From a virus: a stretch of 64,000 bases of DNA. Both the position numbers and the translations under genes were made by a program. The stretch spans positions 32,001 to 96,000 of the IMG/VR virus record IMGVR_UViG_3300043411_001114; one strand, written 5' to 3'. Shown here piece after piece: positions 38,005 through 43,553 of this stretch (within the stretch, counting starts at the first letter, position 1; every line of letters begins with the position of its first letter). The notes beneath the pieces are model-generated. The model was given only the letters and a program-made list of their open reading frames with translations, did no database searches and was not told the DNA's origin.

Positions 38005-38943
38005 ATGAGAACTGGTTTGGGTGCTATAGAGAAGGCACTGCAGAACACCGGCGGCGGCTCCGGTGGAGGTCCGAAGGGTCGGTATCTGACCTACTTCGGT
38101 CTCAAGGACGGCGAGTCCAAGGTCGTCCGGTTCCTGACCGACATCGGCGACCTGATCGCCTGCGATTTCTACGAGTTCGTCCGCGACAAGAACGGGAAGT
38201 TCCAGACCTTCGTCGTCCCGGCCTCGCTGCACACCGAGGACCCGTCCTGGTCGGGCGAGGACTGGGTCATCAAGTTCGGTGGCAAGACCACCGACTACAA
38301 CACCAAGGCGCTGGTCGATCCCACCGCCAAGGAGCGCATCGTCGGTCTGGCCGTCGAGCGCGAGGAGTTCCCGATGGACGTCGGCGGTCGCCGGGTCATG
38401 CGGACCCAGGACAAGCTCGATTCCTTCGAGTCCCGCGAGGGCAAGAAGTTCCCGACCCGGAACTTCATGGTCGTCAAGCAGAACGCCAAGTTCTGGAACA
38501 GCCTCAAGGCGTACTACGACGAGTACGGCACCATCTGCGACCGTGACTACAAGATCACCCGCAACGGCACCGGTTTCGACATCTCCTACTCGATCATCGC
38601 CAAGCCCCAGGACGAGGGGTGGAACCTCGACGGTTCCTCGCTGGCCTCCCTGCGGCAGCGTTACGGGTACGGCACCGGCACCGACATGGACGGCAACGAG
38701 TTGACCTCCGAGTCCGAGGACCGGTTCCTGTACTGCTCTCAGACCCTGACCGAATGGGTCGAGAACGCCGCCTCCGAGGAACGCGCCCGGTCGGCACTGG
38801 TCGCCGACGTGATCGACTCCCCTGCCTCGGAGGCACCGTCCTGGGCGACCTCGGCTCCGGACGAGCCGCAGGCTCAGGTGGCTCCACCGGCGGCCTCGCC
38901 GGACACCTCGTCGCTGCGCGCCCGCCTGGAACGTCACCGCTAG
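38005..38943 (+). CDS. ssb: Single-stranded DNA-binding protein
   Basis: LKDGESKVVRFL, DRDYKITRNG..FDISY; acidic/Pro-rich tail; sits between primase and polymerase. Confidence 0.75.
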   Translation: MRTGLGAIEKALQNTGGGSGGGPKGRYLTYFGLKDGESKVVRFLTDIGDLIACDFYEFVRDKNGKFQTFVVPASLHTEDPSWSGEDWVIKFGGKTTDYNTKALVDPTAKERIVGLAVEREEFPMDVGGRRVMRTQDKLDSFESREGKKFPTRNFMVVKQNAKFWNSLKAYYDEYGTICDRDYKITRNGTGFDISYSIIAKPQDEGWNLDGSSLASLRQRYGYGTGTDMDGNELTSESEDRFLYCSQTLTEWVENAASEERARSALVADVIDSPASEAPSWATSAPDEPQAQVAPPAASPDTSSLRARLERHR

Positions 38944-39179
38944 GGTGATCCTAGACCCCTCACTCCGGTAGGCCTACGGGCCGACCCCATCGGAGACCCG
39001 GACGTTTGAGGACGCCGGTACGGGGCCGACCTCCGCTCGATATGGGGATAGCGAGCGGGGGTGCGGAAGGGCACCAGGAGGTCAATTGACCATCAGCCAG
39101 TCCCAGCCTCCTGGTGCTCTCCCCCACCCCGGATCATTCCCACTAAACACCACCACACCGACAGGCGGGCCTTTTCCGA

Positions 39180-40577
39180 GTGACTCTCCACCAGCACAGC
39201 GAGTTCTCCTTCCTCGATGGCAGGGCCAGGACGATGGAGATCGCCCAGGCAGCCCAGGCCGCCGGGTACGACTCGGTGGCCATCACCGACCACGACGAGG
39301 TCGGTGGCCACATCGACTTCCAGAAATCGTGCAGGAAGGTGGGAATCAAGCCGATCTTCGGCACCGAGGCCCGCTGGGTACGTTCGATCGGGGCTAGCCG
39401 TGAAGCTAAGTCTGCCGGTCGCGACTCGTCGCACATCGTGCTGCTGGCACAGAATCAGACCGGACTGCGTAACCTGTGGGCCTTGTCTTCGCTGGCCTAC
39501 GAGCCTCACTACTTCTACGGTAAACCTCAACTCGACGTCGACCTGATGTCTCGTTATTCGGATGGACTCTGGGCGAGCGACGGATGCTCACTCACCAGAT
39601 TTACCGGCTTCGTCAATGACAATGACGAGGATTCGGCCCTGGAGGAGTGGGGTATCCTGCAGGATATCTTCGGTGACCGGTTCTACTCCGAGTTGCACAC
39701 CTTCCAGATCATCGACCCGGTGACTGACGAGGATAAGGCGCTTAACGCCCGCGTCACGGCAATGAATCAGGCCAAGATGCGGTTTGCCGAAAAGCGTGAC
39801 GTCCGGCTGGTCGCCGTCCATGACGCCCACTACGCCTACCGGCACCAGTGGGAGGAACATCGGCTGGTCTACAACCTGTCCACCCAGGCCTACCGCAAGG
39901 ATCAGGTCGAGTCCAAGGGCCAGGCCGCCGACTGGCTGATGGACCCCGACGACACGGTGTACTTTCTGGGCCGTCACGGCATTCCCACCTCGACCGCCCG
40001 GTCGGCGATCGCCAACGCCCGCGAGATTTCCGATCTGTGCAACGTCGAGATCAATCCCACCCTGTCGATGCCGCGCCTGTACCCGTCCGACGCCGAGGAC
40101 TCGGCGGCCTTCCGCGCCGCGATCGAGGAGGGGTTCCGTCGTTTCGTCGTCGACAAGGGGTTGCCCGAGGACGTCTACCGCCGCCGTCTGGAGTACGAGT
40201 CCGAACTCATCGTCGATCAGGGCATGCCGGGATATTTCAACGTGGTCGCCGATTACGTCCGTAGCGCCCGGGACGGCACCTACATTCAGTGGGTCGACCG
40301 AACCGCCAAACCCAGTCCCTGCCTGTGCGGCCCGGGCCGTGGTTCGGGCGGCGGCTCGCTGGTCAACTATGTCCTGGGCATCACCAGCCTCGACCCGATC
40401 AAATATGACCTGATGTTCGAGCGGTTCATCAACCCTGATAGGGCGAGCGAAAAGAGAAGAATAGAATTAGATTCTGGTGAAGTTCTAGAACTCAATCCAG
40501 GTGACTCGGTGCAACTCAGTGATGGTCGCGTTGTTGTGGCGAGGGACCTCAAGGAGGGGGACGATATATCTTGCTAG
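39180..40577 (+). CDS. dnaE: DNA polymerase III alpha, N-terminal part (PHP + start of palm) with a 44-aa appended tag
   Basis: LHQHSEFSFLDG, AITDHD, GPGRGSGGGSLV.Y.LGIT.LDP..YDLMFERFINPDR. Confidence 0.92.
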   Translation: MTLHQHSEFSFLDGRARTMEIAQAAQAAGYDSVAITDHDEVGGHIDFQKSCRKVGIKPIFGTEARWVRSIGASREAKSAGRDSSHIVLLAQNQTGLRNLWALSSLAYEPHYFYGKPQLDVDLMSRYSDGLWASDGCSLTRFTGFVNDNDEDSALEEWGILQDIFGDRFYSELHTFQIIDPVTDEDKALNARVTAMNQAKMRFAEKRDVRLVAVHDAHYAYRHQWEEHRLVYNLSTQAYRKDQVESKGQAADWLMDPDDTVYFLGRHGIPTSTARSAIANAREISDLCNVEINPTLSMPRLYPSDAEDSAAFRAAIEEGFRRFVVDKGLPEDVYRRRLEYESELIVDQGMPGYFNVVADYVRSARDGTYIQWVDRTAKPSPCLCGPGRGSGGGSLVNYVLGITSLDPIKYDLMFERFINPDRASEKRRIELDSGEVLELNPGDSVQLSDGRVVVARDLKEGDDISC

Positions 40578-41435
40578 AAAAAGTGAAGAACGAGAAGTTC
40601 CGTCGCGCCAAGTGTTTGTTGGTAATAGATCGAGATTGGCTTTCTGAAAAATATCTTGAAGAAAGACTCTCTAAGAGGGAGATAGCTAAGCAGGCTGGGT
40701 GCGATGTTAGTATTATTACGCGCGAGGTTGTTCGTCATGGGTTTTCAAGAAAAAGACCGGAGTGCAAGCCTCGAATCATTCTTCCCGACACGGAGTTCAG
40801 GGAAGATTATTTGTCCGGAAAACCAATGACAGACATGGCTGTTCGGTTTGGTTGTTCGGAGGACGTTATCAGACGTGAAGCTCGTAGGTTTGGTCTTCCT
40901 CCGAGGAAAAATGTTCCCATTCCTCAGGACCTGGAAGAGCTTTTGGTGGAGCGCAAGTGGTTGTGTTCCAGAGTTGCACGACATTATCAGGTTTGTGAAG
41001 ATACCGTCTATAAATGGATAAGAGAAACTGGGCTTAGTGATAGGCACCCAGTCCTTGCCAGGAGGGGAAGGCGGGGAATCAGGGGTTATCGGCATGATCT
41101 AGGCATGAGTTTTCGTAGCCGTTGGGAAGCCAATTACGCCAGAATACTCAATTATGAAGGAATTGTTTTTGAGTACGAGAAGCATAAAATTGAGGTCGAA
41201 AACGGACATAAATACGTTCCCGATTTTCGATTGATGAACGGTACGTTTGTTGAAGTGAAAGGACTTTCGACCAGAAGTAATTTGTGGAAGTTTGAGGATG
41301 CTGTTCGGCGCTATCCAGACAAGAATTTTGTTCTTGTGGACAAGCCTGTTTATAAGATTTTGGAGCGCGAATATCGCCATCTTCCTGGATGGGAGACCAA
41401 TGCCTAAGGTTGTTGCGGTTTCTGTTATTCGTACA
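40443..41435 (+). mobile_element. Low-GC element splitting dnaE: N-tag + endonuclease gene + new start/C-tag
   Basis: Removing 40443-41435 restores NPDR-GDL-PDIDVDF in frame; codon usage changes sharply at both ends. Confidence 0.85.
40571..41407 (+). CDS. Putative homing endonuclease: tandem HTH repeats + PD-(D/E)XK nuclease
   Basis: Three HTH-like units (IAKQAGCD, MAVRFGCS, VARHYQVC); FRSRWEA...YVPDF...VEVKG; AAGGAGG RBS before TTG. Confidence 0.85.
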   Translation: MLEKVKNEKFRRAKCLLVIDRDWLSEKYLEERLSKREIAKQAGCDVSIITREVVRHGFSRKRPECKPRIILPDTEFREDYLSGKPMTDMAVRFGCSEDVIRREARRFGLPPRKNVPIPQDLEELLVERKWLCSRVARHYQVCEDTVYKWIRETGLSDRHPVLARRGRRGIRGYRHDLGMSFRSRWEANYARILNYEGIVFEYEKHKIEVENGHKYVPDFRLMNGTFVEVKGLSTRSNLWKFEDAVRRYPDKNFVLVDKPVYKILEREYRHLPGWETNA

Positions 41436-43553
41436 GGAGACCTTCCTGACATCGACGTCGACTTCCAGAAGTCGAAGCGCGGCGACGTCAAGATGTATCT
41501 CGGTGCCCGATACGGGCACGACAATGTCTGCTCGATCGGCACCCGCTCCCGCTCTGGCCCCAAGCAGATGGTCAAAGACCTCGGCCGCGCCCTGAAGATC
41601 GACTGGGTCGACATCCAGAAGATCGCCGACCTCATCGGTGAGGTCGACGATATTGAGGCTTCCGAGGACGATCTTGCCGACGACCTGGCCGCCCCGACCT
41701 GGAGCGAGGTGGTGGCCGCCCTCGACTCCGACCTGGCCCCCTGGGCGCGCAAGTACCCCGAACTCTTCGACCGGCTGGAGAACATGGTCGGCCTGGTGCG
41801 TCAGGCCGGGGTGCACGCCGCCGGGGTGGTGGTCAACACCGAACCGCTGCTCGGCAATATCCCGACCAGAATCAAAAAAGGCATCCGTTCCACTCAGTTC
41901 GACATGCATGAATGCGCTGAACTCGGCGGCGTGAAGGACGACCTGCTGGCCAACAAGGGCCTGGACGTCCTCGACGTCGCTCGCACCCTGATCTGGGAGC
42001 GGCATCAGGTCTGGCTCGACTATGACGGCTTCGGTTTTGGCATCCCCGAGGGGTGCCCGAAGCATCGCGTGGTGACCTTCGGCGACGAGCATTACGCCGA
42101 CCCGGCCATCTGGGAGCAGATCGACCTGGGCATGACCGCCGGTATCTTCCAGATCGGCACCCCGTCGGGCACCAAGCAGGCGATGCGGTTCAAACCCCGG
42201 TCGTTGCCCGAACTGGCCGACCTCGCCTCCATCAACCGTCCCGGCGTGATCCGGGCCGGGCAGTTGGATCACTACCTCAAGCGCCGTAACGGTGACGAGG
42301 ACATCACCTACGACCACCCGCTGATGGAGCCGATCACCGCCCGCACGATGGGCATCCTGGTCTACCAGGAGGACATGATCCGCACCGCCCGCGAACTGGC
42401 CGGATTCACCGCCGGTCAGGGCGAGGAACTCCGTAAGGCGATCGGCAAGAAGCTGGCCGACAAGATCGCCGAGATCAAGCCCCGTTTCATCGAGGGTTGT
42501 ATGGCCAATCCGGACTTCACCGGCCCGGGCGGCACCAGGTCTACCGCCATGAAGATTTGGGCCTCGCTGGAAGCCGCCGGAGCCTACAGCTTCAATAAAG
42601 CCCACGCCACCGGGTACGCGATGCAGCCGTGCTGGGAGATATGGACCAAACACCACTACTTCGATGAGTTCATCGTCGCCTGCCTGACGGTAATGCCGGA
42701 GAAGACCGTCCAGCTGGTGCGGGAGTGCCGGAAAAAGGGTCGTCCCATCCTGCCCCCCGACATCAACACCTCGGGCGAACACTTCACCTTGACCGACGCC
42801 GGTATCCGATACGGGCTGACCGATATTCGGGGGGTCGGCAAGGCCGCCGCCGTTGACATTCTGGCCAATCGCCCTTACCGGGGCATCGGTGACTACTTGC
42901 ATCGCACCCACCCCAACAAGGGCGGTAAGAAGGGGGTCATCGACTCGCTGGTGAAGGTGGGGGCCTTCGACTCCATCGCTCACGGGATGGACCGTCAGGC
43001 CCTTCTGGACGAGGTCTACTACCACCGGGCCGGGCTGGAGGTCTCGCCCAACAAGTGGGGGAAACTCGGCCAGGACGAGAGGGACGCCATCGTCGCCTCC
43101 AAGTGGGACAAGAACCCCGACGACTACCCGGTGTTCCCCTTCGGGGACGAGAAGTTCATTGTCGCCCTGGAGACCGAACTGCTGGGCACCCACGTCAGTA
43201 TCGACCCGATGGCTCCGTATGCGGCCATGATCGAGGCTGAGTGCATCTCACACCCTGCGGAGGTCGATGACTACGACACCTCCTCCCTGATCGCCATCGG
43301 TGGCGAACTGGTCAAGGTCAAGCAGCACAAGCAGCGCAACGGCAAGGACATGGCGTTCCTCGGCATCCGGTGGAATGAGGAGGACTTCGACGTCGTCGCC
43401 TTCGCCGACTCGTGGGAGGCTAATCGCGCCATGCTGCAGGAGACCGGGGTGCCTGTCGTCTGCGAGGCCATCAAGCTGCCCGGCAAGGGTTGTCTGCTCA
43501 GTCAGGTCATCCGTCTGGACTGGATGTGTGAAGAATCGAAAACAGGAGAATGA
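41400..43553 (+). CDS. dnaE: DNA polymerase III alpha, C-terminal part with a 12-aa N-terminal tag
   Basis: GGGAG RBS, MPKVVAVSVIRT then GDLPDIDVDF, GVHAAGVV, GIFQ, NRPG, VYQE, YSFNKAHA, PDINTS, OB fold. Confidence 0.92.
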   Translation: MPKVVAVSVIRTGDLPDIDVDFQKSKRGDVKMYLGARYGHDNVCSIGTRSRSGPKQMVKDLGRALKIDWVDIQKIADLIGEVDDIEASEDDLADDLAAPTWSEVVAALDSDLAPWARKYPELFDRLENMVGLVRQAGVHAAGVVVNTEPLLGNIPTRIKKGIRSTQFDMHECAELGGVKDDLLANKGLDVLDVARTLIWERHQVWLDYDGFGFGIPEGCPKHRVVTFGDEHYADPAIWEQIDLGMTAGIFQIGTPSGTKQAMRFKPRSLPELADLASINRPGVIRAGQLDHYLKRRNGDEDITYDHPLMEPITARTMGILVYQEDMIRTARELAGFTAGQGEELRKAIGKKLADKIAEIKPRFIEGCMANPDFTGPGGTRSTAMKIWASLEAAGAYSFNKAHATGYAMQPCWEIWTKHHYFDEFIVACLTVMPEKTVQLVRECRKKGRPILPPDINTSGEHFTLTDAGIRYGLTDIRGVGKAAAVDILANRPYRGIGDYLHRTHPNKGGKKGVIDSLVKVGAFDSIAHGMDRQALLDEVYYHRAGLEVSPNKWGKLGQDERDAIVASKWDKNPDDYPVFPFGDEKFIVALETELLGTHVSIDPMAPYAAMIEAECISHPAEVDDYDTSSLIAIGGELVKVKQHKQRNGKDMAFLGIRWNEEDFDVVAFADSWEANRAMLQETGVPVVCEAIKLPGKGCLLSQVIRLDWMCEESKTGE

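Follow-up and report, generated by a model that had tools for sequence, protein, structure and literature searches.

Mobile elements that settle in essential genes are thought to survive there by splicing, either at the RNA level, as introns do, or at the protein level, as inteins do. Among the closest described systems are the 'fractured genes' of Dassa 2009 (PMC2677866), phage-like metagenomic loci, three of them DnaE loci, in which split inteins flank a free-standing homing endonuclease gene. In Aeromonas phage Aeh1, where mobE divides NrdA-a from NrdA-b, the route is a third one, and tails derived from the insertion can be essential (Crona 2011, PMC3045599). Those tails are not required for the NrdA halves to bind each other, only for activity, and the degenerate intein origin that the authors suggested for them was a speculation, the tails having no detectable homologues (PMC3045599). 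Here we describe a split dnaE gene, encoding the replicative DNA polymerase of a mycobacteriophage-like virus, in a stretch of 64,000 nucleotides that we call the window (bases 32001-96000 of the 112-kb IMG/VR viral contig IMGVR_UViG_3300043411_001114, whose completeness is estimated at 74%; all window positions are numbered within the stretch). Overall, we believe it probable that a mobile cassette split this gene, and that the peptides it added, a tail on the N-terminal half (N-half) and a head on the C-terminal half (C-half), are the tags of a dead split intein that likely clip the two halves together with no splicing.

The dnaE region lies on the + strand and resembles that of the Bixzunavirus (cluster C) mycobacteriophages, with about 71% nucleotide identity across the C-half. 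A preliminary description of the locus held that the gene consists of two open reading frames (ORFs) around a gene for a nuclease with helix-turn-helix (HTH) and PD-(D/E)XK parts, that the break lies in the conserved active-site motif, and that all three ORFs overlap; the ORF map and the Pfam matches bear out each of these points. The N-half, the nuclease gene and the C-half, which runs from an ATG at 41400 to 43553, follow one another with stop/start overlaps of 7 nt at the N-half/nuclease junction and 8 nt at the nuclease/C-half junction. Each start is preceded by a purine-rich site, AAGGAGG-like before the TTG of the nuclease gene and GGGAG before the ATG of the C-half, so that the head does possess the ribosome-binding site and start codon ascribed to it. 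The palm/NTPase profile PF07733 is divided at its position 100 between the two polymerase ORFs (the N-half has 4-100, the C-half 100-260), which places the break inside that domain, in the active-site loop between NPDR and PDIDVDF. Residues 2-421 of the N-half match residues 32-452 of the DnaE of LinStu (gp208) at 62% identity, and residues 14-707 of the C-half match its residues 454-1153 at 58% (BLASTP); tail residues 422-465 and the head are therefore extra. We judge the head from the junction to be residues 1-12, and BLASTP homology restarts at residue 14. By this alignment no part of the polymerase is missing; rather, 44 residues have been added at the C terminus of the N-half and 12 at the N terminus of the C-half.

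The inserted piece is foreign in composition. Between 40443 and 41435 (993 nt) the GC content is 0.457, versus 0.62-0.63 in the flanks, and GC at third codon positions (GC3) is 0.43 in the tail, 0.44 in the nuclease gene and 0.25 in the head, set between polymerase cores of 0.82 and 0.85. We compared the locus with 24 related DnaE loci taken from IMG/VR (L046-L069), of which 23 are unsplit and read NPxR, three residues and PDxDxDF, the remaining one having no recognisable motif; the closest relative, with 84% identity over the matched N-terminal segment, is unsplit, and LinStu is likewise uninterrupted. Since tail, nuclease gene and head share one foreign composition, and since the close relatives examined are unsplit, the whole piece would seem to have arrived as a single cassette. 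The tags are absent from all of the unsplit relatives examined, where the 56 residues do not exist as a native domain, an eventuality that the preliminary description had itself raised; its proposals that the low-GC insert supplies both tags and that a mobile cassette brought them are thus in keeping with what we find.

The edges of the cassette are less tidy than that description supposed. Deleting 40443-41435 does rejoin the halves as NPDR-GDL-PDIDVDF, as it had stated, but the closest unsplit relatives read NPDR-PD[FY]-PDIDVDF, so the GDL triplet that occupies the PD[FY] position in the window is not native to this polymerase. A G-x-L ahead of PD is common to all of the split DnaEs that we examined. 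Codons ending in A or T also occur at 40401-40406 (AAA TAT), at 40434-40442 (CCT GAT AGG) and at 41436-41447, which suggests a foreign or co-converted tract slightly wider than 40443-41435; those upstream of the insert may represent a co-conversion tract. At the DNA level none of 50,697 phage records matches the insert, and a word-based protein search with the window tail region returned no match. In IMG/VR we found no relative with the window tail, and the nuclease matches only distant domains, at no more than 47% identity over 50-130 residues.

The same break is found in other phages. A tblastn search with the junction region gave alignments reaching unexpectedly into the tail for Cellulophaga phage phiST and for Bacteroides phage BS-TP1, and in both of them dnaE is broken at exactly the window site. 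What lies between the halves varies: in phiST the ATG of the C-half follows 1 nt after the stop of the N-half; BS-TP1 and most of its relatives have a PIF1/Dda-like helicase gene there; other loci have a PAPS-reductase-like gene (L147), a gap of a few hundred bases (L092 and L145) or no gene at all (L093). The preliminary description had called for a search for the same tag pair around nuclease genes in other split phage genes; same-site pairs do occur, in the phiST group, the Bacteroides phages and many IMG/VR contigs, but those of phiST and the Bacteroides phages flank no homing endonuclease gene. The arrangement is also far from rare: among protein clusters, 1036 are related at E <= 0.01 to the N-half of the Bacteroides phages, tail included. 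The dnaE genes of the 'Gratiaviridae' and the phiST gene were placed in one clade by Benler et al. 2021 (PMC8008677), in whose text we saw the dnaE split nowhere mentioned.

Tails and heads can be aligned across all groups of same-site split DnaEs, although the size of the module differs, from about 76 + 31 residues in the Bacteroides phages through 53 + 16 in the phiST group to 44 + 12 in the window. When scored by hidden Markov models built without it, the window tail reaches 12.8 bits (model of all tails) and 14.1 bits (model of the phiST type), and none of 5000 composition-preserving shuffles reaches either score. Tails are acidic (net charge -4 to -17), and heads are basic in 7 of the 8 pairs. 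In the Bacteroides-phage group, the ratio of nonsynonymous to synonymous substitution rates (dN/dS) is about 0.08 for the tail and about 0.13 for the head, with dS near saturation, and these values indicate that tail and head are under purifying selection in those relatives. On this evidence dead split inteins form a widespread family at the dnaE site, within which the window module is the most reduced.

Several observations on these relatives stand apart from that conclusion. The split dnaE junction seems to be a landing site for unrelated genes, examples being the PIF1/Dda-like helicase gene at L005:3797-5122, the PAPS-reductase-like gene at L147:3751-4641 and a small ORF at L145:3764-3999. 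The minimal tail closest to that of the window, with NPG at the block B position, belongs to a metagenomic DnaE N-half family, P0202 (L149:2371-4020 and L150:3-968), in which a small M23-peptidase-like gene and further ORFs come after the N-half, and the contigs contain no nuclease gene and no C-half; P0202 has no relatives in IMG/VR.

The evidence that the module descends from an intein comes from the family as a whole. Pfam returned no Hint or intein match for the window tail alone, and a family profile was needed to bring out the intein signal; the BS-TP1 tail gives a sub-threshold match to Pfam Intein_splicing (E 0.0014). The five top PDB sequence matches of the tail profile are the Pab PolC, TFIIB, PI-PkoII and Mja KlbA inteins and 9hth, which the Foldseek match list identifies as the Aes123 PolB1 split intein, and all five align from block B as far as the GD motif ahead of the endonuclease-insertion/split site. 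Against 1.84 billion proteins the profile gives 85 matches at E <= 0.001. Some of these are dead tails of other DnaE N-halves; others, from ribonucleotide reductases and a family B polymerase, are genuine N-intein fragments and mini-inteins that carry TxxH, with E-values down to 2e-8, and the contiguous mini-inteins among them end in HN. Ten of the matched proteins were checked, two of them DnaE N-halves, and Pfam Intein_splicing is found at E <= 0.001 in eight, including seven of the eight non-DnaE proteins, with five above the curated cutoff. At block B the intein matches read T-x-N-H or T-x-D-H, the window reads NPGD, and its relatives read ExGS, DxDAE or similar. Taken together, these alignments indicate that the tail is homologous to the intein segment between block B and the split site, and that the head is homologous to a C-intein's first strand, as the preliminary description had surmised in calling the tags an intein-derived half-Hint. 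The DnaE tails of P0150 and of the L094 group start with Cys, which we read as a probable vestige.

The L094 group, a subgroup of the Bacteroides phages, shows a further peculiarity. In this region (L094:3855-4030, and also L095-L099) the dead, Cys-initial tail is accompanied by a head ORF (3876-3983 in L094) that stops at a TGA, one frame off the rest of the C-half (...CTT CCG TGA GCC GGA TAT...), and a +1 shift at CCG-TGA would bring the PDIDVDY strand back. The same out-of-frame layout is present in L099, the second of the two that were read, so a sequencing error is improbable, and a programmed +1 frameshift or a further break may be responsible.

Structure models of the relatives point in the same direction. 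In L093 the tail, a single TAA and the head share one frame, and an AlphaFold2 model of the read-through has a predicted local distance difference test (pLDDT) score of 88-96 over the tag domain, except at the tail-head junction; its roughly 50 best PDB matches in Foldseek consist entirely of inteins, bacterial intein-like domains and Hedgehog Hint domains. The reduced module of L146, modelled by AlphaFold2 through two TAA codons with its natural 8-residue linker, has pLDDT 85-94 over the tail and about 93 over the head strand, and matches only Hint domains, with a VIA Z of 9.3 to the intein 7oec (root-mean-square deviation, rmsd, 2.3 Å over 66 residues), 8.3 to a class 3 DnaB intein, 6bs8 (rmsd 1.4 Å over 55 residues), and 7.1-8.1 to gp41-1 and Npu DnaE. 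The matched range of L146, 15-82, takes in both tail and head, and on the intein side the aligned ranges (such as 40-105 of 128) run across the natural split sites. The window's own 56 residues align to the central Hint strands only, the models being those of its relatives. Judged from these models, 'half-Hint' is an apt term, as the module would correspond to the central sheet of the Hint fold.

The gene between the halves has the make-up of a mobile nuclease. It matches PF05367 (Phage_endo_I) at amino acids (aa) 178-237 with E 2e-10 and, in Pfam, HTH_28/23/38; in PHROG, the HTH region (aa 20-114) is matched by families that carry the annotation HNH endonuclease and the nuclease region (aa 167-258) by endonuclease/resolvase families, and tblastn searches with the gene find phage endonuclease I genes. 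The translation contains PDF and VEVKG, supplying the PD and ExK of a PD-(D/E)XK core, together with separate DNA-binding modules. A modular DNA-binding and nuclease protein, encoded where an essential gene is most conserved and missing from sister genomes, carries what we take from its sequence to be the signature of a homing endonuclease. Homing, the predicted cutting of a cassette-free allele and spread by repair, may have left indirect signs, namely the presence/absence polymorphism among relatives and the possible co-conversion codons. The same genome has, outside the window, another gene built in this way (HTH repeats and PD-(D/E)XK, with PDF...VEIKG) at G000:C1:3678-4691, equivalent to L002:1162-2175. 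It encodes 337 aa with 33% identity to the window nuclease over the nuclease region, and it lies just after a capsid-like gene, apparently in an intergenic position where it splits no gene.

The pathway that we propose runs as follows. A cassette composed of a tail segment, an HTH/PD-(D/E)XK gene and a head segment would have entered the dnaE of a Bixzunavirus-like (cluster C-like) actinophage in the loop that leads from the FERFxNPxR helix to the catalytic PDxDxDF strand. The tail would represent the last strands of an N-intein, those between block B and the split site, and the head the first strand of a C-intein, in a module that has lost its splicing chemistry. Two DnaE polypeptides would then be made, co-translated with the nuclease from overlapping ORFs; the acidic tail and the basic head would pair as the central beta-sheet of the Hint fold and dock the palm halves into a composite active site, and this pairing would neutralise the insertion without RNA or protein splicing. 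The nuclease, for its part, would cut uninterrupted dnaE alleles, and repair would copy in the entire cassette, tags included. A bolder version holds that tail, nuclease and head constitute a third kind of self-neutralising mobile element, self-contained, homing into the dnaE of unrelated phages with its own means of non-covalent repair, and in which a Hint core of 44 + 12 residues suffices to hold the active site together; this we put forward tentatively, at somewhat less than an even chance.

Two rivals would have the polymerase restored by splicing after all. The tags might belong to a working split intein of an unusual class, with the halves joined by protein trans-splicing. They are, after all, intein-derived; position 1 is still Cys in some relatives (the L094 group and P0150), inteins of classes 2 and 3 do without Cys or Ser there, and one of the structural matches of the L146 model is the class 3 DnaB intein 6bs8. 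The window module, however, has been stripped of the necessary parts, as the preliminary description had noted residue by residue. Its first tail residue is Ala, so that a position-1 nucleophile (Cys/Ser/Thr) is absent; NPGD stands where block B should read TxxH; and the head ends in R-T with Gly as the next residue, which provides neither a terminal (His-)Asn nor a +1 Cys/Ser/Thr. The heads of relatives end in H-G, followed by S or A, or in N/D-G, and neither a nucleophile nor a terminal Asn is conserved across the family of split-DnaE tags. The strands for blocks A, F and G are gone as well, block F being the site of the class 3 Cys, and 56 residues amount to the central part only of a Hint fold of 125-140. 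With the catalytic residues and blocks A, F and G missing, no ligation is expected, and we regard trans-splicing as highly improbable. The insert might instead be a self-splicing intron with an endonuclease ORF, the tail and head arising by chance read-through. Phage DNA polymerase genes often bear group I introns with homing endonuclease genes, and an insert of 993 nt that is AT-richer than dnaE would suit such an element. But no Rfam group I or II intron matches 40200-41700 even at E <= 10, only 128 nt precede the nuclease ORF and 28 nt follow it, the flanks encode peptides homologous to modules of split DnaEs that have no intervening gene whatever (phiST), and the heads have start codons and ribosome-binding sites of their own. 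To an intron we give hardly any credence.

The tags could also be intein-derived, carried by the cassette and yet vestigial, with the halves joined through complementary palm surfaces and the tags doing no more than marking the points at which translation ends and begins again. The NrdA halves of Aeh1 bound each other without their tails (PMC3045599), the window module is the most reduced of its family (56 residues as against about 110 in the Bacteroides phages), no close relative has the window cassette by which selection on the window copy could be gauged, and L149 and L150 have a similar minimal tail with no adjacent C-half within their short contigs. Set against this, dN/dS near 0.1 bespeaks purifying selection on the tails and heads of relatives; the hydrophobic pattern, the EGDD end motif, the position of the stop and the complementarity of charge persist in three phage groups whose intervening DNA is otherwise unrelated; and the reduced L146 module is still predicted with high confidence to co-fold. 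We consider dispensable tags unlikely, though they deserve to be taken seriously. Far less likely, in our estimation, is that the split dnaE is dead and that the phage replicates by another polymerase. The contig is a metagenomic fragment, 74% complete by estimate, and the gene is known from its sequence alone; both halves, though, are intact over 1126 aligned residues, with catalytic motifs present and a host-like GC3 of 0.82-0.85, and the same split has been kept across large phage families. That the tags clip the halves together without splicing thus remains the reading that we favour, and several points weigh against it. Non-covalent reassembly by the window tags is something we infer, and the split palm halves might associate without them; in Aeh1 it was activity, and not the binding of the halves, that needed the tails, and by that analogy a 'clasp' may be too simple a notion. 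In a six-frame search of 1091 pieces of the window, the window tail ranks first, but weakly (7.3 bits, E 0.33). The structural support stems from predictions for relatives with somewhat larger modules and not from the window's 44 + 12 aa pair. Finally, as no close relative bears the same cassette, the case for homing and for selection on the window copy is an indirect one.

The features of the locus are collected in Table 1. Within the insert, the coding strand has no promoter-like or terminator-like site. A hairpin at 40526-40586 pairs the Shine-Dalgarno region and TTG start of the nuclease gene with upstream tail-coding sequence; the fold of 40520-40600 has z = -2.24, a weak signal equalled by 4 of 200 shuffles. 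This hairpin recalls, again as a weak signal, those that sequester the ribosome-binding sites of free-standing phage homing endonucleases. A non-coding gap of about 237 nt (38943-39179) lies immediately 5' of the GTG start of dnaE. We considered a programmed frameshift that would fuse the three ORFs into an intein-like precursor and rejected it, there being no slippery site before the stop of the N-half and the overlaps resembling ordinary coupling.

Table 1. Features of the split dnaE locus, with positions numbered within the window
Feature	Position	Strand	Size, composition or basis
DnaE N-half ORF, including tail	39180-40577	+	465 aa
DnaE N-half core (PHP and first part of palm/NTPase), ending in NPDR	39180..40442	+	Pfam PF02811, PF07733 positions 4-100; GC3 0.82
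N-half tail, 44 aa and TAG stop; putative dead N-intein remnant (block B region to split site)	40443..40577	+	net charge -5; GC3 0.43
Shine-Dalgarno-like AAGGAGGGG before the TTG start of the nuclease gene, within the hairpin	40551..40559	+	sequence
Free-standing homing-endonuclease-like gene, HTH modules and PD-(D/E)XK	40571..41407	+	278 aa; GC3 0.44
C-half head, 12 aa; putative remnant of the first C-intein beta-strand	41400..41435	+	net charge +2; own ATG and GGGAG site; GC3 0.25
GDL-P codons (GGA GAC CTT CCT) of cassette-like composition, in place of PD[FY]-P	41436..41447	+	comparison with unsplit relatives
DnaE C-half core (catalytic DxD strand, remaining palm, fingers, HhH)	41448..43553	+	Pfam PF07733 positions 100-260, PF17657, PF14579; GC3 0.85

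Whatever the precise part played by the tags, the window locus and its relatives tie the reassembly-tail route of the Aeh1 type to degenerate split inteins, where the origin of the Aeh1 tails had been unknown. The modules form a shrinking series, from about 110 through 68 to 56 residues, and the arrangement is a common one, seen in over 1000 protein clusters of gut phages. The case for mobility is clearest in the window, which combines foreign composition and an apparently intact nuclease gene with a polymerase lineage that is otherwise unsplit among the members examined. Tight binding between the 44 and 12 aa peptides, should it occur, would provide a very small natural docking pair for protein engineering; and if the cassette is indeed an element of a third kind, the pair would be a natural, minimal and cysteine-free means of heterodimerisation, and dead split inteins would be a common and overlooked end state of intein evolution. 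Our search of the literature, which was incomplete and leaves absence unproven, found no paper on natural splicing-dead split inteins as docking modules or at the dnaE site.

How the locus stands to the described systems can now be stated more fully. In BS-TP1, the 'Gratiaviridae'-like contigs and phiST, as in the window, the break lies between xxR and PDxDxDF, the tags can be aligned and G-x-L precedes PD; their modules, however, are larger (about 110 and 68 aa), no homing endonuclease lies between the halves, and their DnaE clade is unrelated to that of the actinophages. Records of the BS-TP1/phiST type are annotated only as DNA polymerase or PHP-domain proteins. The cyanobacterial split DnaE intein (Ssp/Npu) also involves two DnaE chains with pieces of a Hint fold at their ends and electrostatic association, and the L146 model aligns to residues 52-114 of Npu DnaE with Z 7.1. 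Unlike the window, that intein occupies a different DnaE site and trans-splices actively, with its halves at separate loci and no endonuclease gene between them.

The fractured genes (PMC2677866) share with the window an essential replication gene broken at a conserved site, intein pieces on the two halves with an endonuclease gene in the middle, hairpins lying upstream and tightly spaced ORFs. Their split inteins, however, possess the full set of six Hint motifs together with the five catalytic residues and splice in trans, whereas the window lacks the catalytic residues and blocks A, F and G, and their nucleases are GIY-YIG or Vsr-like, in contrast to the T7 endonuclease I-like enzyme with HTH modules encoded here. 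The nearer parallel in outcome is NrdA of Aeh1 (PMC3045599), where the host gene is a ribonucleotide reductase and the nuclease an HNH enzyme, as opposed to DnaE and a T7 endonuclease I-like enzyme. The function of the Aeh1 arrangement was tested biochemically, and the window is known from sequence; for the window, on the other hand, homology to inteins is established from sequence and from the predicted fold of its relatives. In both, a free-standing homing endonuclease fragments an essential gene and leaves an AT-rich foreign tail and head of opposite charge, and Aeh1 NrdA, like the polymerase that we propose here, does without RNA or protein splicing.

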